A stretch of 24,000 nt of DNA from Melioribacteraceae bacterium. Its GTDB lineage: Bacteria; Bacteroidota; Ignavibacteria; Ignavibacteriales; Melioribacteraceae. Below are positions 9,083 to 19,450 of the stretch, piece by piece. The notes beneath the pieces are model-generated. The model saw only the letters and a program-made list of their open reading frames with translations. It was not told the origin of the DNA and did no database searches. The first letter of the stretch is position 1; the number at the start of each line of letters is the position of its first letter. The translations under genes were made by a program, and so were the position numbers. The stretch covers positions 15,148 through 39,147 of the forward strand of contig JALVFE010000022.1 of assembly GCA_027030245.1 (NCBI GenBank). The letters run 5' to 3'.

Positions 9083-9280
9083 ATGGAATCGGTTTTCGGT
9101 GCCATATTAATCCTTGCTTTAAGAGTAATCGACGTAATACTCGGAACGTTCCGCACGATTTTATTGGTTCAAGGTAAAAAGTATCATGCCGGCGCTATCG
9201 GTTTTTTCGAAGTGATGATTTGGCTGTTTGCAATGCGTTTTGTTTTTCAACATCTTGATAATTATATCCATAATTTCTGA
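9083..9280 (+). pseudogene. 3'-truncated UPF0316 / DUF5698-DUF2179 family membrane protein (only about the first 60 of about 180 aa)
   Basis: MESVFGAILILALRVIDVILGTFRTILLVQGKKYHAGAIGFFEVMIWLFAMRFVFQHLDN resembles, from memory, the first two TM helices of B. subtilis YebE-type proteins (recalled features: the TIRTILLV block and IVFQDLSN). The family-typical third TM helix and the cytoplasmic DUF2179 domain are missing. The frame ends in NYIHNF-stop at the start of the AT-rich island flank. Confidence 0.5.
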
Positions 9281-9595
9281 GAAGAAATTATTCAAACACC
9301 AGCCAAGATTCGTCCTAAAATATAAAATAGAAAAAAATATATCCCAAAAACGAGATAAAAAGAATTAGTTTTTATATTTTAGCAAATATTTTTTGAACTT
9401 AATAAAGCACAATTAATAGCATAACGGAAACTCCTAAAAGAAAAAGGTAAAAAAATATTTGCCAAACAAAAGCATAAATGTTACAATTTTGTTAATGCTA
9501 ATTTTCAAAATATACAACAAGCCCGATTAGAATTCTTTATAAAATTGCATAGATTGTAAAGATATTCCTATAAAATTTATATAAAAATAAGTCGT

Positions 9596-12500
9596 ATGAT
9601 TAAAGAAAATACAATAGAAGAAAATCTGATAAAACAATTGACCGACTTAAAGTATATTTATCGCCCAGACATTGTCAATAGAAAAACTCTTGAACAAAAT
9701 TTCAGAGAAAAGTTTGAAAAATTGAACAAGGTAAGACTAACAGATAATGAATTTGCACGATTACGAGAACAAATTATTACGCCTGATGTATTTGCCGCTT
9801 CCAAGTTATTAAGAGAAAAACAATATTTTGAACGGGAAGATGGAACGCCATTACATTTTACATTGGTTAATATAAAAGACTGGTGCAAAAACGAATACGA
9901 AGTTATTAACCAACTGCGTATCAACACCGAAAATAGTTTTCAACGATACGATGTTATTTTGTTGATAAACGGATTGCCAATCGTTCAAATTGAACTGAAA
10001 AAAGTTAATGTTTCGCCAAGAAAAGCAATGCAACAAATCGTTGATTACAAAAACGATCCGGGTAATGGCTATACCAATACCTTATTGAGTTTTATGCAAC
10101 TGTTTATTGTGAGCAATCTAACTAACACATATTATTTTGCCAATAATATCAACCGGCATTTCGCTTTTAATGCAGATGAACAATTTTTACCTATTTACCA
10201 TTTAGCTGATGAAAAAAACAAGAAAATTACTCATCTGACTGAATTTACCGAAAGATTTCTCACAAAAAGTAACTTGGGAGAAATGATTAGCAAATACATG
10301 GTTTTGGTAGAGAGCGAACGGAAATTGTTAGTAATGCGCCCTTATCAGATTTATGCGGTGAAAGCTATTGTTGATTGTATTAATCAAAACAGAGGCAACG
10401 GTTATATTTGGCACACTACAGGCAGCGGAAAAACTCTTACTTCTTTCAAGGCGTCAACCTTGTTGAAGGATAATCCAGATATAGAAAAATGCTTGTTTGT
10501 AGTTGACAGAAAAGATCTTGACCGACAAACTCGAGAAGAATTTAATAAATTTCAGGAAGGCTGTGTTGAGGAAAACACTAATACCGAAACCCTCGTTAAA
10601 CGAATGCTTTCCACTGATTATTCCGATAAAGTAATTGTAACAACTATTCAAAAACTCGGTTTGGCTTTAGATCAAAATAGTAAGTTTAATAAGAGAAAAA
10701 CAAAAAAAGGACTTCCCACTTTTAAAGATAAATTGGCATCGCTAAGAGATAAACGAATGGTTTTTATTTTTGACGAATGCCATCGTTCGCAATTCGGAGA
10801 AAATCATAAGGCAATTAAAGATTTTTTCCCCCGCGCCCAACTTTTCGGATTTACCGGCACGCCTATTTTTGAAGAAAACGCAACTTATAAAATTAGAGAA
10901 GATCGTTTTGAAACTTACAAAACTACCGAAGCGGTTTTTGAAAAGCTCCTACATTCTTACACTATTACGCACGCCATAGAAGATAAAAATGTTTTGCGTT
11001 TTCATATTGATTATTACAAAGGCAAAGGCGAAAAAGAACCTAAGCCTGACGAGCAGGTTACGCAATTGGCAATTGTTGAAGCTATTTTGGAAAAACACAA
11101 TGCGGCAACTAATAATAGAAAATTTAACGCGCTATTAGCTACTTCATCGATCAATAATGCTATAAGTTATTACCGACTTTTTAAAGAAATTCAAAAAAAG
11201 AAATCGGAAGAAAATCCGGACTTTGTACCGTTAAATATCGCTTGCGTTTTTTCGCCTCCTGCGCAACTTATTGCTAAGGAAGGAGATAAACAAAGCCAAA
11301 AAACAGCCGAAGACATTAAGCAATTACAAGAAGATTTAATACAAGAAAAAGAAGATAACAAACAAAATCCAGAAGAAAAGAAAAAAGCTCTGGAAGAAAT
11401 TATTGCGGATTATAACAAACAATACGAAACAAATTATAGCATAAACGAATTTGATTTATATTATCAGGATGTACAAAGCCGCATCAAAAATCAAAAATAC
11501 AGTAATAAAGATGTTCCGCATAAAGATAAAATCGATTTGACAATCGTGGTGGATATGCTTTTGACTGGTTTTGATTCTAAATATCTCAACACCCTTTATG
11601 TAGATAAAAACTTAAAATATCACGGATTAATACAAGCATTTTCACGAACAAACCGCGTCTTGAACGACACAAAACCTTATGGCAATATTCTTGACTTTCG
11701 TATGCAAAAAGACGCTGTAAATCAGGCGGTGGCTTTATTCTCAGGCGAAGACAGTCACAAAGCCCAAGAAATTTGGTTGGTTGAACCCGCATCAGTAGTT
11801 ATCGAAAAATATGAAGAAGCCGTAGCGAAATTAGGTGAGTTTATGAAAAACCATAATTTGGTGCAAGAACCGCAAGAAGTCTATAATCTTAAAGGCGATA
11901 CGGCAAAAATCGAATTCATTAGAAATTTCAAAGAAATCCAACGACTCAGAACCCAACTTGACCAATATACCGATTTAAGCGATGAACAGAAAGAGTATAT
12001 TGAAAAGATTTTACCGACGGACACTTTACAGGAATTCAGAAGTTCTTATATCGAAACGGCTAAACAATTACGTGAAATACAGCAAAAAGAAGGAGACAAT
12101 GCGCCTGAGGAAATTCAGGAGTTGGATTTTGAATTTGTGCTGTTCGCTTCGGCAATTATCGATTATGATTACATAATGAATTTAATTGCGGAAAGCACGA
12201 AAAAGAAACCCTCTAAATATAAAATGACAAAGCAACAAATCATTAATTTGCTCAAATCCACTTCAAATTTAATGGATGAAGAAGAAGACCTCACCGACTA
12301 TATTAATAGTCTTGATTGGAGCAAAGGACAAAATGCCGATGATTTGCGAAAAGGCTATGATATTTTTAAAATAGAAAAATATAATAAGGAACTCGCACGA
12401 ATAGCCAACAAACACGGCTTACAAACGGTTAACTTAAAAGAATTTGTGGAGAACATTATAAACCGAATGATTTTTGACGGCGAAAAACTTACGGATTTGC

Positions 12501-12628
12501 TCGAGCCGCTGGATTTGGGTTGGAAAGCCCGCAGAGAAAAAGAATTGGCGTTAATGGAAGATTTGGTTCCACTATTAAAAAAATTAGCCCAAGGACGCGA
12601 GATATCCGGTCTGAAAGCTTATGAATAA
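9596..12628 (+). CDS. hsdR: Type I restriction enzyme R subunit (EcoR124/EcoprrI-like size class, 1010 aa)
   Basis: N-terminal PD-(D/E)xK nuclease block RYDVILLINGLPIVQIELKK. SF2 helicase motifs MRPYQIYAV, HTTGSGKTLTS (motif I), FIFDECHRSQ (DEAH-type motif II), FGFTGTP (motif III) and VVDMLLTGFDSKYLN...QAFSRTNR (motifs V/VI). The C-terminal domain is long and helical. Confidence 0.93.
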   Translation: MIKENTIEENLIKQLTDLKYIYRPDIVNRKTLEQNFREKFEKLNKVRLTDNEFARLREQIITPDVFAASKLLREKQYFEREDGTPLHFTLVNIKDWCKNEYEVINQLRINTENSFQRYDVILLINGLPIVQIELKKVNVSPRKAMQQIVDYKNDPGNGYTNTLLSFMQLFIVSNLTNTYYFANNINRHFAFNADEQFLPIYHLADEKNKKITHLTEFTERFLTKSNLGEMISKYMVLVESERKLLVMRPYQIYAVKAIVDCINQNRGNGYIWHTTGSGKTLTSFKASTLLKDNPDIEKCLFVVDRKDLDRQTREEFNKFQEGCVEENTNTETLVKRMLSTDYSDKVIVTTIQKLGLALDQNSKFNKRKTKKGLPTFKDKLASLRDKRMVFIFDECHRSQFGENHKAIKDFFPRAQLFGFTGTPIFEENATYKIREDRFETYKTTEAVFEKLLHSYTITHAIEDKNVLRFHIDYYKGKGEKEPKPDEQVTQLAIVEAILEKHNAATNNRKFNALLATSSINNAISYYRLFKEIQKKKSEENPDFVPLNIACVFSPPAQLIAKEGDKQSQKTAEDIKQLQEDLIQEKEDNKQNPEEKKKALEEIIADYNKQYETNYSINEFDLYYQDVQSRIKNQKYSNKDVPHKDKIDLTIVVDMLLTGFDSKYLNTLYVDKNLKYHGLIQAFSRTNRVLNDTKPYGNILDFRMQKDAVNQAVALFSGEDSHKAQEIWLVEPASVVIEKYEEAVAKLGEFMKNHNLVQEPQEVYNLKGDTAKIEFIRNFKEIQRLRTQLDQYTDLSDEQKEYIEKILPTDTLQEFRSSYIETAKQLREIQQKEGDNAPEEIQELDFEFVLFASAIIDYDYIMNLIAESTKKKPSKYKMTKQQIINLLKSTSNLMDEEEDLTDYINSLDWSKGQNADDLRKGYDIFKIEKYNKELARIANKHGLQTVNLKEFVENIINRMIFDGEKLTDLLEPLDLGWKARREKELALMEDLVPLLKKLAQGREISGLKAYE

Positions 12629-12874
12629 AAAGCAAAATATTGTTCACTATAAAAATTGCTAAATTGAATTAAATATTTATATCTACAGAGAAACCGCGGG
12701 GTTTATACAAAATGGAATTGGCGTTTTATTTTAGAAAGAGCGTCCATTTATCGCTCGGCGCATAAATAAGGTATTGAAAGACAAAGAGGTTAACGAAACA
12801 TGCATTTTGCAAAAAATACACATTACACTACACGGCAACCTCAAAAGAAGCGCATACGAATAAAGAGAAAAACT

Positions 12875-13717
12875 ATGAACGAGATTGTAATATATCATGC
12901 CGAACAACTTAATCAACAAATTGAAGTAAGAATTGAAGATGAGACTATATGGTTAACCCAAGCGCAAATAGTAACATTGTTTGATAGCAGTAAAGCTAAT
13001 ATTAGCGAACATATAAAACATATTTTTCAAACGGGAGAACTTACGCCTGAAGCAACTGTTCGGAAATTCCGAACAGTTCGAAAAGAAGGAAACCGAACCG
13101 TAACAAGAAATCTCGTTCATTATAATCTTGATATGATTATCTCAATTGGATACAGAGTCAATTCAATCCGCGGGACGCAATTCCGCATTTGGGCAAACAA
13201 GATACTAAAAGACTATTTGTTAAAAGGATACGCCCTTAATAACCGGATGAACCGAATAGAAGACAATTTACAAAAACTTACCGAAAAAGTGGAAGGCATC
13301 GATTTGCAAATAAAAGCTAATTTGCCGCCAAATCAAGGTATTTTCTACAACGGGCAGGTATTTGACGCTTACCTGCTTATTGCCGAAATTATTAAAAGCG
13401 CCAAAAGCTCCATTATTCTTATTGATAATTACGTTGATGAAACCGTATTGGCAATGTTAGACAAACGATGCAAAAACTGCGAGGCAACTGTTTTTACCAA
13501 AAACATCACAAAAAAACTGAAATTAGACGTTGAAAAACATAACCGACAATACCCTGAAATAGAACTAAAAAAATTAACCACCGCCCACGACCGTTTTTTA
13601 ATTATCGACCGGAAAACCGTTTACCACTTTGGCGCAAGCTTAAAAGACGCCGGCAAAAAATGGTTTGCTTTTTCAAAGTTGAATATGAATGCAAAAGATA
13701 TTATTGAGAAATTATGA
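12875..13717 (+). CDS. rhuM: RhuM-family N-terminal domain protein with a divergent C-terminal domain (HDRFLIID...GASLKD block)
   Basis: From the ATG at 12875, MNEIVIYHAEQLNQQIEVRIEDETIWLTQAQIVTLF...YNLDMIISIGYRVNSIRGTQFRIWANKILKDYLLKGY is the RhuM N-terminal signature. The C-terminal roughly 150 aa is not the canonical RhuM continuation. The stop overlaps the hsdS start (ATGA at 13714-13717). The tracked upstream ATG at 12800 adds a basic 25-aa extension that homologues lack, as far as I recall. Confidence 0.75.
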   Translation: MNEIVIYHAEQLNQQIEVRIEDETIWLTQAQIVTLFDSSKANISEHIKHIFQTGELTPEATVRKFRTVRKEGNRTVTRNLVHYNLDMIISIGYRVNSIRGTQFRIWANKILKDYLLKGYALNNRMNRIEDNLQKLTEKVEGIDLQIKANLPPNQGIFYNGQVFDAYLLIAEIIKSAKSSIILIDNYVDETVLAMLDKRCKNCEATVFTKNITKKLKLDVEKHNRQYPEIELKKLTTAHDRFLIIDRKTVYHFGASLKDAGKKWFAFSKLNMNAKDIIEKL

Positions 13718-14913
13718 GTGATAAGCAAAAAAACAAACTGATACCGAAATTGCGTTTTCCTGAGTTTAAGGATAACGGGGAGTGGAAAATTGATAAAGTT
13801 GTAAATTTAATTAATACAATTACGCCACCAAAGAAACTTAAAACAAAAGATTATCTGGAAGAAGGTAAGTTTCCCATTATAGATCAATCTCAAAGTTATT
13901 ATTGTGGTTGGACAAATGATATAGAAGCTATTATTTCTGACAATTTGCCTTTAATAATTTTTGGTGACCATACTTGCATTTTGAAAATAATTCAAGAACC
14001 TTTTGCACAAGGGGCAGATGGAATAAAGATATTGAAAACAAAAGAAAATGTTACTTCTGAATTTTTATTTCATTTTTTACAACATTATGGAGTTAAACAA
14101 GAAAATTACAAACGGCATTTTTCAAAATTAAAAGAAAAAATAGTATTTTTTCCTGATATTAAAACAGGTGAACAACAAAAAATTGCTTCCTTTCTTTCCA
14201 ATTTGGATAAATTGATTGAAGCTCACAATAAAAAACTTGATTTGCTCAAACGGCATAAAAAAGGATTAATGCAAAACCTTTTTCCGCAAGAAGGTGAAAA
14301 AGTCCCGAAATTGCGCTTTCCGGAGTTTAAGGATAGTGGGGAGTGGGAGGAAAAAATTCTTTCTAAAATAACTGATTACATATTTGATGGAACTCACCAA
14401 ACGCCGCGATATATTGAAAATGGTATTCCATTTTTTAGCGTAGAAAATATTATAAGTGGAAATAAGAATAAATTTATATCACACGAAGATTATGAAATAG
14501 CTACAAAAAAGAATAAACCTGAAAAAGGAGATATTTTAATAACAAGAATTGGCAAAATAGGATATTCTGCAATTGTGGATTGGGACTATGAATTTAGTAT
14601 ATATGTAACTCTCGCTTGTATTAAAAAATCAAAACATTTTGATTCGTATTATTTACATTCCTATTTTCAATCGGAAACTTATCAAAAAGAAATTATGAGC
14701 AAAGCATTGTTAAATGCGGTTCCCAGTAAAATAAATATGAATGAATTAAGAGAAACAAAAGTATTATTACCTTCAATTCCCGAACAAAAAAAAATCGCTT
14801 CTTTTCTTTCCAATTTGGATAAATTGATTGAAGCGGAAGAGAAAAAAATAGAACTATTGGAAAAACATAAAAAGGGATTAATGCAAGGATTGTTTCCTAA
14901 TATAGACGAGTAA
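13714..14913 (+). CDS. hsdS: Type I R-M specificity subunit, two target-recognition domains
   Basis: The architecture is duplicated. (I/V)PKLRFPEFKD(N/S)GEW occurs at aa 10 and aa 198. The conserved helical spacer QKIASFLSNLDKLIEA..KK..LL..HKKGLMQ.LFP also occurs twice. Two unrelated variable TRDs lie between these elements. Confidence 0.92.
   Translation: MSDKQKNKLIPKLRFPEFKDNGEWKIDKVVNLINTITPPKKLKTKDYLEEGKFPIIDQSQSYYCGWTNDIEAIISDNLPLIIFGDHTCILKIIQEPFAQGADGIKILKTKENVTSEFLFHFLQHYGVKQENYKRHFSKLKEKIVFFPDIKTGEQQKIASFLSNLDKLIEAHNKKLDLLKRHKKGLMQNLFPQEGEKVPKLRFPEFKDSGEWEEKILSKITDYIFDGTHQTPRYIENGIPFFSVENIISGNKNKFISHEDYEIATKKNKPEKGDILITRIGKIGYSAIVDWDYEFSIYVTLACIKKSKHFDSYYLHSYFQSETYQKEIMSKALLNAVPSKINMNELRETKVLLPSIPEQKKIASFLSNLDKLIEAEEKKIELLEKHKKGLMQGLFPNIDE
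14191..14222 (+). repeat. hsdS internal direct repeat, copy 1 (32-bp perfect core of a ~115-bp diverged conserved-region duplication)
   Basis: tttctttccaatttggataaattgattgaagc is found identically at 14803-14834. The flanks are similar but diverged (gaacaa[c/a]aaaaaat[t/c]gcttc upstream, ggattaatgcaa downstream). Confidence 0.9.
14803..14834 (+). repeat. hsdS internal direct repeat, copy 2
   Basis: Identical 32-mer to 14191-14222, 612 bp downstream. It encodes the second FLSNLDKLIEA helix. Confidence 0.9.
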
Positions 14914-14917
14914 AATT

Positions 14918-16036
14918 ATGAGTGTTGAAAGCTATTCTTTTTCAAACTTAGCAGATTTTGCCCGTTATTTGAGAGAACAGGACAAAAAAGTACACTTGTT
15001 GTTCGCTTACAATGGAACAGGGAAGACCCGTTTGTCAATGGATTTCAGGCAAGCTGGTAAAACATTTGACGAAGAGGGGAATGTAACAAATAGAGATACT
15101 TTATATTTTAATGCTTTTACTGAAGATTTATTTTATTGGGATAACGATTTGGAAAATGACACTGAAAGAGTGTTAAAAATTAATCAAAATTCAAGATTCT
15201 TTGAAGGTCTTCCTGATTTGGAAATGGAAAATAGAATTCGTCCTTTACTAAGACTATACACGGACTACGATTTTTACATTGATTATGACAAATGGCACGT
15301 AAGATTTACCAGAGAAGAACGGATTAAAGGTGAAACTATCACACATGACTTTATAAAAATATCGAGAGGCGAAGAGAGGCTTTTTATCTGGTGTTTCTTT
15401 TTGGCAATAATGCAATTGGCAATAGACAGACAAGAAGCATATAACTGGGTAAAATATATTTTTATTGATGATCCGGTTTCGTCATTAGACGACCATAATG
15501 CTGTTTCCGTGGCACATCATTTAGCACAAAAAATAAAGAAAATTGAAGGTAATAGCATTAAGGTGGTTATTTCAACTCATCATGCATTGTTTTTTAATGT
15601 TCTTTCAAATGAATTTAAAAGAGCCAAAAAGTTTTTTATTAAAAAAGCCGATATCGGTTATTTGTTAAGAGCAACTACAGATTCCCCTTTCATTTATCAT
15701 ATTGAATTGATTCAAAAAATAAAAAAAGCAATCGATGAAGATAAATTATTTACATACCATTTTAATATTTTGAGAACCATTCTTGAAAAAGCGGCAAACT
15801 TTCATGGTTATACAAATTTTTCGGATTGTTTGATTATTGACGACGACGATGAAGAAGGCACTTTACATTCTCGTTTGGTCAACATCATGAGCCATGGCGC
15901 ATACTCTTTATTTGAACCTGTTGAAATGGTAGAAGAAAATAAGAAGTATTTTATAAATATTTTTAATAATTATTTGCAAAACTATAAATTTAACGAACTA
16001 TTATTTACCGAAAAAAATCCTGAGCCATTAACATGA
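14918..16036 (+). CDS. prrC: PrrC-like AAA_13-type ABC ATPase, candidate anticodon nuclease embedded in the R-M operon
   Basis: 372 aa. Walker A AYNGTGKT (aa 30-37). YFNAFTEDLF resembles the FN-box that follows Walker A in this family. ABC-signature-like ISRGEERLF (aa 148-156). Walker B with D-loop YIFIDDPVSSLD (aa 180-191). H-motif VISTHH (aa 217-222). C-terminal N283-x2-R286-x3-E290 followed by S325-H326 matches the spacing of the PrrC Arg/Glu/His nuclease triad as I recall it. It starts 4 nt after the hsdS stop, and its stop overlaps the hsdM start (ATGA at 16033). Confidence 0.65.
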   Translation: MSVESYSFSNLADFARYLREQDKKVHLLFAYNGTGKTRLSMDFRQAGKTFDEEGNVTNRDTLYFNAFTEDLFYWDNDLENDTERVLKINQNSRFFEGLPDLEMENRIRPLLRLYTDYDFYIDYDKWHVRFTREERIKGETITHDFIKISRGEERLFIWCFFLAIMQLAIDRQEAYNWVKYIFIDDPVSSLDDHNAVSVAHHLAQKIKKIEGNSIKVVISTHHALFFNVLSNEFKRAKKFFIKKADIGYLLRATTDSPFIYHIELIQKIKKAIDEDKLFTYHFNILRTILEKAANFHGYTNFSDCLIIDDDDEEGTLHSRLVNIMSHGAYSLFEPVEMVEENKKYFINIFNNYLQNYKFNELLFTEKNPEPLT

Positions 16037-17646
16037 CACAAAAAGAACAACAAGAACTGGGTAAAACCCTTTGGAAGATAGCAGACGAACTTCGCGGGGC
16101 GATGAATGCGGATGATTTCCGCGATTATATGCTTTCGTTTTTATTTTTACGATATTTATCGGATAACTACGAAAAGTCCGCAAAAAAAGAATTGGGTAAA
16201 GATTACCCGAGATTGGACAAAGACGATAAGCGTACGCCTCTTGCCGTTTGGTATGAGCAAAACCCGAACGATGTAATTGAATTTGAAAAACAGATGCGCA
16301 GGAAGGTACACTATGTTATAAAACCGAAACACTTATGGACTAATATTGCCGAAATGGCTCGCACACAAAACGACGACCTGTTACAAACTTTGGAAGAAGG
16401 TTTTAAATACATAGAAAACGAATCTTTTGAAAGCACATTTCATGGTTTATTTTCGGAAATAAATTTGAATTCCGAAAAATTGGGCAAAACATACGAAGAA
16501 CGAAACAAAAAACTATGTAAAATCATCACTAAAATAGCCGAAGGCATTGCCGAATTTTCTACCGATTTAGATACTCTGGGCGACGCTTACGAATATTTAA
16601 TCGGTCAATTTGCCGCGGGTTCAGGCAAAAAAGCCGGAGAGTTTTATACTCCGCAACAAATATCCACAGTTCTTTCTGAAATTGTTACGCTAGACAGCCA
16701 TGACCCTGCCGCAGGCAAAAAAAATAAATTAAATAAGGTACTTGATTTTGCTTGCGGTTCAGGCTCATTGCTCTTAAATGTACGAAAACGAATGAAAGAA
16801 AGCGGTGGTACGGTAGGTAAAATTTACGGTCAGGAAAAAAACATCACCACATACAACCTTGCGCGAATGAATATGCTTTTGCATGGAATGAAAGACACGG
16901 AATTTGAAATATTTCACGGAGATACATTGCTTAATCAATGGCCGCTGCTCAACGAAATGAATCCAGCAAAAAAAATTGAATTCGACGCCGTAGTCGCTAA
17001 TCCTCCGTTTAGTTTACGGTGGGAACCTAACGAAACAATGGCGGAAGATTTCAGATTTAAAGGTTACGGTTTGGCACCAAAGTCGGCGGCGGATTTTGCT
17101 TTTTTACTTCACGGTTTTCATTATCTTGCCGGAAACGGCACAATGGCAATTATTTTGCCTCATGGGGTATTATTTCGAGGCGGAGAGGAAAAGAAAATCC
17201 GAACCAAGCTTTTAAAAGACAACAATATTGATGCAGTAATAGGGTTGCCTGCCAATCTTTTTTATTCGACCGGTATTCCGGTTTGTGTTATGGTGCTTAA
17301 AAAATGCAAAAAAGAAGACGATGTGTTGTTTATAAATGCCAGCGAACACTATGAAAAAGGAAAACGACAGAACTTTTTGAGAGATGAAGACATTGAAAGA
17401 ATTGTCGAGACGTACAAAAATCGACCCAAGAAAATAGAACGTTATGCGAGAAGAGTTTCGATGGATGAAATTGATAAGAACGACTACAACTTAAATATTT
17501 CGAGATATGTAAGCACGGCAATACCTGAAGAAAAAATTGATTTGAAAAAGGTAAACAAAGACTTGATTGAAATCGAGAAAAAAATAAAAAAATTCACGGA
17601 AAAACATAACGAATATCTAAAAGAATTAGGATTAAAAACAATTTAA
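16033..17646 (+). CDS. hsdM: Type I R-M N6-adenine DNA methyltransferase subunit
   Basis: HsdM_N-type N-terminus LWKIADELRGAMNADDFRDYMLSFLFLRYLSDNYE. Also GEFYTPQQIS, motif I VLDFACGSGSLLL and motif IV VVANPPFS. Confidence 0.95.
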   Translation: MTQKEQQELGKTLWKIADELRGAMNADDFRDYMLSFLFLRYLSDNYEKSAKKELGKDYPRLDKDDKRTPLAVWYEQNPNDVIEFEKQMRRKVHYVIKPKHLWTNIAEMARTQNDDLLQTLEEGFKYIENESFESTFHGLFSEINLNSEKLGKTYEERNKKLCKIITKIAEGIAEFSTDLDTLGDAYEYLIGQFAAGSGKKAGEFYTPQQISTVLSEIVTLDSHDPAAGKKNKLNKVLDFACGSGSLLLNVRKRMKESGGTVGKIYGQEKNITTYNLARMNMLLHGMKDTEFEIFHGDTLLNQWPLLNEMNPAKKIEFDAVVANPPFSLRWEPNETMAEDFRFKGYGLAPKSAADFAFLLHGFHYLAGNGTMAIILPHGVLFRGGEEKKIRTKLLKDNNIDAVIGLPANLFYSTGIPVCVMVLKKCKKEDDVLFINASEHYEKGKRQNFLRDEDIERIVETYKNRPKKIERYARRVSMDEIDKNDYNLNISRYVSTAIPEEKIDLKKVNKDLIEIEKKIKKFTEKHNEYLKELGLKTI

Positions 17647-18022
17647 CAATGAAATGACTACCAACAGATGTAAAGATTTACAATCATTAAACGCATTTTA
17701 ATTTTTTAATATGTTAACCAAAATTATACTGAGCATGAACCACTAAATAAAATATATTGCAGAAGAATACGCTTAGTCAATGAAATAAGAAAGTGCCAAT
17801 AATTTCCGACTTGTAAAGGAAAGCTACAATAAATCACCAAATAACAATATAGAATGCGCATAACACAAAATTAAGTTAAACAGAAAAAGATGCGTTTATA
17901 ACCGTACAGCATTCCCGACCGTATCGCGGATTTATTCACGGAGCGAGAAAATAAGTTTGAAAAAAAGAACAAACAATATTATATTACGTGTTCAAAATTT
18001 TGTTCTTTATCTGAAAAAATAT

Positions 18023-18095
18023 GCGGGAGTAGCTCAGTTGGTAGAGCATCACGTTGCCAACGTGATTGTCGCGGGTTCGAGTCCCGTCTCCCGCT
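18023..18095 (+). tRNA. tRNA-Gly (anticodon GCC)
   Basis: Hand-folded cloverleaf. Acceptor GCGGGAG/CTCCCGC. D arm GCTC-AGTTGGTA-GAGC. Anticodon stem TCACG/CGTGA with loop TTGCCAA. T arm GCGGG-TTCGAGT-CCCGT. Discriminator T. CCA is not encoded. Confidence 0.9.
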
Positions 18096-18101
18096 CTACT
18101 C

Positions 18102-18131
18102 AAATCCACTGAACGGTGGATTTTATTTTTT
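18102..18131 (+). terminator. Rho-independent terminator between the two tRNA genes
   Basis: An 8-bp stem AAATCCAC (18102-18109) / GTGGATTT (18116-18123) with a short loop, running into TTTTATTTTTT. Confidence 0.6.
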
Positions 18132-18147: not shown

Positions 18148-18221
18148 GGCGGCGTAGCCAAGTGGTCTAAGGCGAAGGTCTGCAAAACCTTTATTCGTCG
18201 GTTCGAATCCGACCGCCGCCT
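18148..18221 (+). tRNA. tRNA-Cys (anticodon GCA)
   Basis: Acceptor GGCGGCG/CGCCGCC. Anticodon stem AAGGT/ACCTT with loop CTGCAAA. T arm GTCGG-TTCGAAT-CCGAC. Variable loop of 5 nt. Discriminator T. CCA is not encoded. Confidence 0.88.
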
Positions 18222-19450
18222 CAACCTTTTCCTCTCATTAAATTTTCTATAACCTCAACCGCTTTTTCGACTCCGTTTTCGTTCCGGATTTTTTCTCCCA
18301 ATTTTTCGGCATTTTCCCTTAGCGTGTTGTTTGTCATCAGCTCGTTTACCCTTTTTAAGATTTGCTCATCCGTTAAATTAGCGGTGAATAACGGTAGGGT
18401 ACCCGCCCCTATTGCGTGAACACGGTTGCCCCAAAATTTATGGTCGCCGTAAGTGGGAACAACGGTCAACGGTTTTCCAGCCCGCAAAACCGCCGCAACC
18501 GTACCGGGTCCGCCGTGCGAAATAACCGCTCTAACTTTTGGCAAAATATATGCATGCGGAACGGAGCCGTCGACGAAAAATATTTTACCCGGTTTATTTA
18601 GTTTTGAGATGTCCGCTCCTCCGGGATTTGCGACAATTCTGTATTCGGTTTTAAGTAAAACCGAGAGAATCTTCGATATTATTTGTTCGGAATATTGCCC
18701 CAAACTTCCGATATCAAAAAAGAGCGGTTGGGAACCATTGTTGATAAAATCTTCGAGTTCTTTTGCGGGTGAGTAACTTTCCAAATCTTTCAGAAACCAA
18801 TAACCGGTTACGTAAATCCATCCGGGCCAATCTTTGGGTCGCGGAATAACACTTTCACTATAACCGTAAATTACCGGCATCTTTTCTTTATGTTGCTTGT
18901 GCAACAATCCGTAAAAAGGAATCGGCTTTAAATCAAGCAACTCCTTTCGCAATTTGTTTATGTTCTTTTTAATAATCTGCCACTCGAAAAATTGGGAAAC
19001 CAAATAACTCGTTTTATTTAAAAATGCCGGCACCGATTTTAAAAACGGATTGGGAAACTCTTTCGTGGGCGTGTACGGAACATAACTGCATTTAACTACC
19101 GGTATTTCCAATTTTTGCGCAACGTGGTAACCAACGTGATAGACCGGAGTAAAAATTATCAAATCCGAATTTTTTGCGGCTTCAATTCCATCGTTAATCC
19201 AGTTCGTCATAAAATGATAATAAATTTTTCTTCTTTCTTTATACGGAGTGTCTTTATATTCGTCTTTCAGAATATCCATCGGATTATTTCTTATTAAATC
19301 GAATTTGATTCCGCGGCTTTCGATAAAATCTTTAAATTCCGGATTTGCCGCAAAGTTAACCGAATGCCCGGCATCTTTTAAACCGACCGCCAAAGCTAAA
19401 AACGGCTGCACATCACCGCGGCTTCCGACCGTTAATATTGAAATATTCAT
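18221..19450 (-). CDS. GT1-family glycosyltransferase (MGT / sterol-glucosyltransferase-like, GT28 N-terminal-type domain)
   Basis: N-terminus MNISILTVGSRGDVQPFLALAVGLKDAGHSV. C-terminal nucleotide-sugar motif ISHGGPGTVAAVLRAGKPLTVVPTYGDHKFWGNRV...GAG. Confidence 0.85.
   Translation of the reverse strand: MNISILTVGSRGDVQPFLALAVGLKDAGHSVNFAANPEFKDFIESRGIKFDLIRNNPMDILKDEYKDTPYKERRKIYYHFMTNWINDGIEAAKNSDLIIFTPVYHVGYHVAQKLEIPVVKCSYVPYTPTKEFPNPFLKSVPAFLNKTSYLVSQFFEWQIIKKNINKLRKELLDLKPIPFYGLLHKQHKEKMPVIYGYSESVIPRPKDWPGWIYVTGYWFLKDLESYSPAKELEDFINNGSQPLFFDIGSLGQYSEQIISKILSVLLKTEYRIVANPGGADISKLNKPGKIFFVDGSVPHAYILPKVRAVISHGGPGTVAAVLRAGKPLTVVPTYGDHKFWGNRVHAIGAGTLPLFTANLTDEQILKRVNELMTNNTLRENAEKLGEKIRNENGVEKAVEVIENLMRGKG

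Follow-up and report, generated by a model that had tools for sequence, protein, structure and literature searches.

A predicted PrrC-family anticodon nuclease encoded within a type I restriction-modification operon of a Melioribacteraceae bacterium

We analysed a stretch of 24,000 nucleotides from a Melioribacteraceae bacterium (GenBank assembly GCA_027030245.1, contig JALVFE010000022.1, positions 15,148 to 39,147 of the forward strand), hereafter referred to as the window, with regard to an open reading frame (ORF) with an ATG start that the ORF listing places at positions 14918-16036 of the plus strand and that codes for a protein of 372 amino acids. Judged from its sequence, this protein is very probably a bona fide PrrC-family anticodon nuclease, which belongs to a widespread clade with the gene order hsdR-hsdS-prrC-hsdM and would stay latent until the associated restriction-modification (R-M) enzyme is disabled. 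The original prediction, made from the letters of the DNA, had proposed a PrrC-like candidate, and this identification is supported by profile matches, the PrrC box, the conservation of essential residues and the context of an R-M operon. By analogy with tested relatives, nuclease activity of the protein is probable, but not certain. The gene is correctly identified but ordinary, as a widespread clade with a tested member normally shows this layout.

Profile matches and essential residues of the 372-residue protein

The proteins of the window were searched against the profiles of Pfam, NCBIfam and PADLOC. The PADLOC profile PrrC (PDLC02360) matched the 372-residue protein with an E-value of 8.5e-134 and 444 bits, with residues 8-361 aligned to positions 18-349 of the 372 profile positions. 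The match covers both domains of the predicted prrC gene product (14918..16036, plus strand), an NTPase of the ABC/Rad50 type at the N-terminus and an RNase domain at the C-terminus. The original prediction had suggested such a profile search and had named the lack of a significant match to the C-terminal region as an outcome that would speak against it; the match obtained is full-length and includes the C-terminal nuclease region. The Pfam model AAA_13, which is common to RloC and PrrC, scored above its gathering score and was aligned through residue 329. The NCBIfam search of the protein yielded no PrrC-specific match, and the RecF/ABC matches were weak and far below the cut-offs.

As a reference for the PrrC protein of Escherichia coli (EcoPrrC), we used the 396-residue 'anticodon nuclease' encoded by an hsdM-hsdS-prrC-hsdR locus (L002) in the complete genome of E. 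coli strain B1. Checked against the literature, this reference has four of the five motifs at the numbers given there, and all 16 residues that were checked; the fifth motif, the PrrC box, is one residue off the printed version. The alignment consisted of the reference, the protein of the window and 118 close homologs, and 32 essential residues of EcoPrrC were listed from Meineke et al. (PMC3025547). The length of 396 residues and the triad R320/E324/H356, which the original prediction had given, are correct (PMC1484252, PMC3025547). The protein of the window is 37-38% identical to the reference, and 26 of the 32 essential residues are identical. In the N-domain, identity was found at 19 of 22 essential positions, the exceptions being K171 (replaced by R), H225 (by N) and N224 (by H); the substitutions K171R and H225N are tolerated in EcoPrrC (PMC3025547). 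EcoPrrC H297 and K299 are not conserved in the protein of the window, and a toxic Streptococcus homolog likewise lacks both (PMC3025547).

All NTPase motifs named in the original prediction were located in the translation, namely AYNGTGKT (from residue 30), YFNAF (63), ISRGEE (148), IFIDDPVSSLD (181) and STHH (219). Walker A, AYNGTGKT, lies at 15005..15028 (plus strand, as are all following motifs) and is kept in 117 of the 118 homologs; its K36 and T37 and the subsequent R38 align with EcoPrrC K46, T47 and R48, all of which are essential. The PrrC box, YFNAFTEDLFYWDND, spans residues 63-77 (15104..15148) and contains E69, W74, D75 and N76, the equivalents of essential EcoPrrC E88, W93, D94 and N95. 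It agrees with the EcoPrrC motif, 82-YYNAF(Y/T)EDLFYWDND-96 (PMC3025547), at all but one or two of its 15 positions, and the box has been described as a motif unique to the family (PMC1484252). YFNAF is thus present as predicted but is not the generic NTPase motif that it had been taken for: the PrrC box, which is specific to the family, begins with it, and the evidence is thereby stronger than had been assumed. The ABC signature or C-loop, KISRGEE (15356..15376), places K147 and R150 at the positions of EcoPrrC K168 and K171, and the Walker B motif with the D-loop, IFIDDPVSSLDDHN (15458..15499), matches D215, D216, S219, S220, D222 and D223 of EcoPrrC with D184, D185, S188, S189, D191 and D192. 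In the H-loop, KVVISTH (15560..15580), K215, T220 and H221 align with EcoPrrC K245, T250 and H251, and further downstream N227 and E232 correspond to N257 and E262.

The motifs that the original prediction had named in the C-terminal region, NILRTILE (from residue 283), DDDDEEG (308) and MSHG (324), were found as well. A region equivalent to the Lys-anticodon-recognising peptide (LARP) of EcoPrrC, ATTDSPFIYH (15671..15700), runs up to H261, the counterpart of essential EcoPrrC H295. It is followed by the putative catalytic helix HFNILRTILEK (15758..15790), in which H281, R286, T287, E290 and K291 stand at the positions of EcoPrrC H315, R320, N321, E324 and K325, by the acidic loop DDDDEEG (15839..15859), and by the R-x2-N-x3-H motif RLVNIMSH (15872..15895), in which R319, N322 and H326 match the essential R349, N352 and H356. 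The proposed triad R286/E290/H326 is accordingly present and aligns with R320/E324/H356 of EcoPrrC; the R-to-E spacing is identical in the two proteins, and E and H are 36 residues apart in the protein of the window. R319 and H326, separated by six residues, form the Rx4-6H motif of HEPN-type nucleases, to which PrrC has been assigned (motif definition and assignment in PMC3710099). These two residues are invariant in the 118 homologs, H281, R286 and E290 are kept in 117-118 of them and N322 in 111, and H261 is likewise invariant or close to it. Such near-invariance is consistent with purifying selection on a nuclease. An AlphaFold2 model of the protein reached a predicted local distance difference test score (pLDDT) of 79.8, and its N-domain resembled the ATPase heads of Rad50, SMC, PtuA and retron proteins in a structure comparison.

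The operon and its clade

Five genes run in the same direction, in the order hsdR, RhuM-like gene, hsdS, prrC and hsdM. The first of them, hsdR (9596..12628, plus strand), codes for a type IC-like type I restriction subunit of 1010 residues with the Pfam domains HSDR_N, SWI2_SNF2/ResIII, T1R_D3-like and EcoR124_C (E-value 8.5e-64 for the latter) and with matches to NCBIfam hsdR (3e-118) and PADLOC REase_I (1068 bits); a full-length comparison with the HsdR of EcoprrI, from the classical prr locus of E. coli, gives 34% identity. The hsdS gene (13714..14913, plus strand) codes for a specificity subunit of 399 residues with two target-recognition halves, reflected in two stretches matching Pfam Methylase_S and a full-length match to PADLOC Specificity_I (3.4e-85). 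The hsdM gene (16033..17646, plus strand) codes for a methyltransferase subunit of 537 residues that matches the NCBIfam hsdM equivalog (5.9e-123) and Pfam N6_Mtase and HsdM_N and is 37% identical to EcoprrI HsdM. The EcoR124-type C-terminus of HsdR, together with the relatedness to the EcoprrI subunits, marks the system as type IC-like; its order, hsdR-(rhuM)-hsdS-prrC-hsdM, is not the hsdM-hsdS-(prrC)-hsdR order of the EcoR124I/EcoprrI family. The start of prrC lies 4 nucleotides past the stop of hsdS, and its stop overlaps the start of hsdM (ATGA); prrC is part of an intact type I (IC-like) R-M operon and is coupled to it in translation. The genomic context put forward in the original prediction, a position between hsdS and hsdM, holds, with hsdR, hsdS and hsdM all intact. 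A scan of the window for sigma-70 promoters returned 38 promoter-like sites compared to 34.9 expected and was uninformative; the host may in any case rely on promoters of another type.

When one genome per species was scanned, at least 379 relatives of the protein were confirmed by tblastn among the 600 pattern matches listed, and the loci of the best 80 of these were compared. They derive from Bacteroidota, Proteobacteria, Firmicutes, Spirochaetes, Cyanobacteria, Acidobacteria and others. The order hsdR-hsdS-prrC-hsdM on one strand fits all 80 loci as far as the contigs cover them (69 are complete, 10 are broken by contig ends and one has an extra HsdR-like match downstream), and the linkage of prrC to R-M genes holds in all 80. 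The clade comprises at least 8000 relatives among the matches listed. The exact protein of the window is also found in NCBI, JGI, ENA and Logan, on a contig of 91.8 kb (the Logan contig of 1.2 kb added no further context), and its 90% cluster includes a fragment of 76 residues from a metagenome-assembled genome of Candidatus Marinimicrobia (Neomarinimicrobiota).

The original prediction had listed three differences from the E. coli prototype, and according to the sequence comparison all three are common to a large PrrC clade of wide phylogenetic range. The placement between hsdS and hsdM instead of between hsdS and hsdR is real but is no peculiarity of the window, since it is the norm of the clade in all 80 loci as far as the contigs show the order. 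The length of 372 compared to 396 residues was likewise given correctly; what looked like an oddity is due to the lack of an extension at the N-terminus and to the shortening of two loops of the NTPase domain. The acidic DDDDEEG stretch does not distinguish the protein: D310 and D311 are kept in at least 90% of the clade, and a similar loop occurs in PrrC170, the tested member of the clade discussed below, where the site reads ENDDDDEK. In E. coli 2900 the same site reads QDADDPER.

E. coli holds both layouts: proteins of R-S-X-M loci, 54-55% identical to the protein of the window, and M-S-X-R loci of the classical type. Identity to EcoPrrC amounts to 32-37% for the R-S-C-M proteins. At least three types of PrrC can be told apart at the E. 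coli loci (L001 and L004 versus L002 and L003), namely the classical type of 396 residues in M-S-C-R order, labelled 'anticodon nuclease', a second type of 414 residues that is 55-56% identical to the classical one and has the same order, and a third type of 367-386 residues in R-S-C-M order. The RefSeq label of the second and third types is just 'AAA family ATPase'.

The same label is carried by most of the examined members of the R-S-PrrC-M clade, and the window shows that this clade can confidently be called PrrC. A compact PrrC of 372 residues with a co-encoded R-M partner and a structure prediction of reasonable confidence may also serve as a structural target for the silencing of an RNase by a type I enzyme, and the variable N321 position and the shortened LARP provide natural variants for probing substrate choice. 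The value of the window lies in annotation and in the choice of study material, and it does not reveal new biology.

Deviating residues, proposed mechanism and alternative readings

Several observations weigh against the identification of the protein as an active, tRNA-Lys-cleaving PrrC. At the position of EcoPrrC N321, the protein has a threonine (T287). N321 is strictly essential in EcoPrrC, with the A, Q and D mutants all dead, and the position is occupied by Asn or Gln in the four homologs aligned in the same study (PMC3025547). Among the 118 homologs of the clade, the residue is T in 76, N in 18, S in 9 and I in 6. We regard T287 as a caveat and not as a family-defining difference, given that this position is variable in a clade with an active tested member. 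Residues 193-194 (15494-15499) are His-Asn, the reverse of the essential Asn224-His225 of EcoPrrC; in the clade, Asn-Asn (71 homologs) and His-Asn (44) are found at these positions. The LARP of EcoPrrC, 284-KYGDSNKSFSY-294, recognises the Lys anticodon; the corresponding segment of the protein, ATTDS--PFIY in the alignment, is two residues shorter and identical at 4 of 11 positions (D255, S256, F258 and Y260), so a tRNA-Lys target is not assured. With this segment the protein lies outside the LARP-bearing subgroup of EcoPrrC and NmePrrC and, by sequence, is a non-LARP member of the R-S-C-M clade. The homologs from Neisseria and Xanthomonas, NmePrrC and XcaPrrC, were non-toxic when expressed alone in yeast and E. 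coli (PMC3025547), and activity therefore cannot be assumed for every member of the family. Finally, the C-domain of the AlphaFold2 model gave no significant structural match in the PDB, and a PDB sequence search with the whole protein gave nothing relevant, the best matches being TagBFP and a myosin light chain (E > 0.06); as far as sequence comparison goes, relatives of PrrC and RloC are absent among the solved PDB structures.

The Streptococcus, Xanthomonas and Neisseria loci in our sample were considered as orthologs of the tested SmuPrrC, XcaPrrC and NmePrrC. This was rejected, as the published residue signatures (PMC3025547) match none of them.

The mechanism that we propose is derived by homology to EcoPrrC (PMC1484252, PMC3025547, PMC12707154) and PrrC170. 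EcoPrrC cleaves the anticodon loop, is kept latent by its R-M enzyme and is activated by an anti-restriction factor together with GTP/dTTP (PMC1484252). By analogy, the PrrC protein of the window would be produced together with HsdMSR and kept latent by association with the R-M complex. A phage anti-restriction factor would disable the R-M enzyme, and binding and hydrolysis of NTP by the N-domain would then license the C-domain, which would cleave a host tRNA in its anticodon loop through a transesterification that needs no metal. The likeliest target would be tRNA-Lys, and its cleavage would stop translation and abort the infection.

With respect to the target, the alternative that survives best is a PrrC-family nuclease with the same activation logic that acts on another RNA, either another tRNA or another type of anticodon loop, and we hold it to be a possible, though clearly less favoured, reading. 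It would fit the shortened LARP-equivalent segment with its four identical positions and the Thr in place of the essential N321, and non-LARP homologs have been proposed to target other RNAs (Blanga-Kanfi et al., PMC1484252). However, PrrC170, which shares only 35% identity with EcoPrrC and has an incomplete LARP, still depletes tRNA-Lys; moreover, the four positions at which the LARP segment is conserved are those of the tRNA-Lys-recognition residues D287, S288, F292 and Y294 of EcoPrrC. The substrate specificity that the original prediction had left open is thus answered in part by the depletion of tRNA-Lys by PrrC170 (PMC11555353), which is 52% identical to the protein of the window, and the target of the latter is still uncertain.

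It is unlikely that the protein is a silent or strictly co-factor-dependent PrrC homolog, i.e. a protein that serves the R-M complex only as an accessory ATPase or an enzyme that needs, for example, the RhuM-like protein. The non-toxic NmePrrC and XcaPrrC would be precedents for such a protein, and T287 could be read in the same way. But the other conserved nuclease residues and all NTPase residues are kept and near-invariant over the 118 relatives, which makes a dead nuclease unlikely, and Thr is the majority residue at the N321 position (76 of 118), which argues for a state of the lineage and not for a lesion. An obligate partnership with the RhuM-like protein is excluded by the presence of such a gene in just 11 of the 80 related loci.

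An RloC-type enzyme, i.e. a DNA-damage-sensing, self-regulated and R-M-independent tRNase that excises the wobble nucleotide, shares the AAA_13 model with PrrC, and some close homologs bear the JGI label 'wobble nucleotide-excising tRNase', but this reading is highly improbable and refuted by the architecture of the protein, which has just 372 residues, matches AAA_13 at positions 499-689 of 713 only and therefore lacks the long coiled-coil part, has two cysteines (C159 and C304) and no CxxC zinc hook, contains the PrrC box and matches no PADLOC family named RloC at E <= 1, while prrC of the clade is always found within an R-M operon and rloC rarely is (PMC3458546). A PrrC-family anticodon nuclease under the control of its type I R-M enzyme is the reading that we retain.

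Neighbouring features and comparison with known systems

The gene between hsdR and hsdS, at 12872..13717 of the plus strand, codes for a RhuM-like protein classed as PADLOC PDC-S05 accessory gene. Its ORF can open at 12800, and the profile matches begin at the Met codon at 12872; PADLOC PDLC04879 (PDC-S05) matches over the full length with an E-value of 4.5e-123, and Pfam Virulence_RhuM (1.2e-25) covers the N-terminal part only. The stop of the gene overlaps the start of hsdS (ATGA), indicating translational coupling. A reading of the C-terminal half as PLD/HKD-like, based on a PLDc_2 match with an E-value of 0.05 and the string HDRFLIID...GASL, is weak and found no support in a PDB sequence search. 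Five of the related loci have a RhuM-like gene between hsdS and prrC (L011, L028, L035, L055 and L072), and six have one between prrC and hsdM (L012, L024, L058, L061, L068 and L074). Since these junctions differ from that in the window, they suggest a repeated independent insertion of the RhuM-like cassette into R-S-PrrC-M operons. Gaps of more than 300 nucleotides were seen between hsdS and prrC in 9 of the related loci and between prrC and hsdM in 14, and some of them hold RhuM-like genes. It is conceivable, if doubtful, that the R-M complex guards two latent effectors, the PrrC RNase and the RhuM-like protein, with layers acting on DNA, tRNA and a third target, and/or that the variant with T287 and the short LARP cuts a tRNA other than tRNA-Lys; the support for this consists of the adjacency of the genes and the two residue differences.

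The GC content of the region 9281-17950 is 33.4% (29.0% for hsdS and 31.3% for prrC) compared to 38.7% in the left and 37.4% in the right flank. To the left, an ORF of 65 residues (9083-9280, plus strand) matches positions 1-42 of the 58 positions of Pfam DUF5698 (E-value 4.9e-13) and then stops. This truncated ORF is probably a gene remnant at the left edge of an inserted R-M/PrrC island, and the C-terminal remnant of DUF5698 was not found to the right of hsdM. On the right side, genes for tRNA-Gly(GCC) (18023-18096, plus strand) and tRNA-Cys(GCA) (18148-18222, plus strand) follow about 380 nucleotides downstream of hsdM, with the island on their 5' side. A terminator-like hairpin lies between the two tRNA genes (18102-18123) and not directly after hsdM, and the window contains no recognisable integrase. 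The lower GC content, together with the DUF5698 fragment at the start and the tRNA genes at the end, suggests that the island was acquired horizontally. The genes in the flanks have housekeeping or sugar-modification functions (PCMT, glycosyltransferase, DUF4910, epimerase and C-methyltransferase).

The closest known system is that of PrrC170 from Klebsiella quasipneumoniae isolate 170, a four-gene HsdR-HsdS-PrrC-HsdM system that protects against T1 and T7 and whose PrrC arrests growth when expressed alone, with tRNA-Lys depleted in tRNA-seq (Azam et al., Nat Commun 2024, PMC11555353). The sequence of PrrC170 was machine-read from an alignment in the supplement of that paper and is 34.8% identical to our EcoPrrC reference, in agreement with the published figure of 35%. 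The protein of the window is 52% identical and 72% similar to PrrC170 over its full length (E-value 8e-133), which places it in a clade with a characterised member that targets tRNA-Lys, and the core gene order of the two operons is the same. The two proteins share the short N-terminus, the PrrC box, the helix YHFNILR..EK, the motif FHGY, the DDDDE loop and R-x6-H. They differ in that PrrC170 keeps Asn at the N321 position, where the protein of the window has Thr, and keeps YGD of the LARP, where the latter has TTDS. Unlike the PrrC170 system, the operon of the window contains the additional RhuM-like gene, and its host is an uncultured bacterium of low GC content and not an enterobacterium. 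Defence and depletion of tRNA-Lys were demonstrated for PrrC170 only.

The classical prr locus of E. coli CT196, with EcoPrrC and EcoprrI (PMC1484252, PMC3025547), shares with the window the two-domain architecture, the NTPase motifs, the PrrC box and a type I operon in which HsdR bears EcoR124_C, and the R/E/H triad as well as R349, N352, H295 and H315 of EcoPrrC all have equivalents in the protein of the window. The prototype differs in its order, M-S-PrrC-R compared to R-S-PrrC-M, and EcoPrrC has about 16 more residues at the N-terminus, longer loops behind Walker A and ahead of Walker B, the full LARP, N321, H297 and K299; from E324 to R349, at the site of the acidic stretch, its loop is four residues shorter. 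RloC of Geobacillus and Acinetobacter (PMC2610378, PMC3458546) resembles the protein of the window in its ABC-type ATPase, its homologous C-terminal nuclease with the same Arg/Glu/His and its AAA_13 match. It is about twice as long and carries a zinc hook and a coiled coil like that of Rad50, both of which are lacking in the protein of the window; it removes the wobble nucleotide by excision, and its linkage to R-M genes is rare. Lastly, a survey of HEPN proteins (Anantharaman et al. 2013, PMC3710099) described loci in which R-M genes occur together with a PrrC-like protein of the ABC-HEPN type and a predicted toxin resembling RhuM, and proposed for them, on purely computational grounds, a multi-level defence. 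The window is an example of such a locus, with the RhuM-like gene between hsdR and hsdS instead of between hsdS and prrC or between prrC and hsdM as in the 11 related loci.

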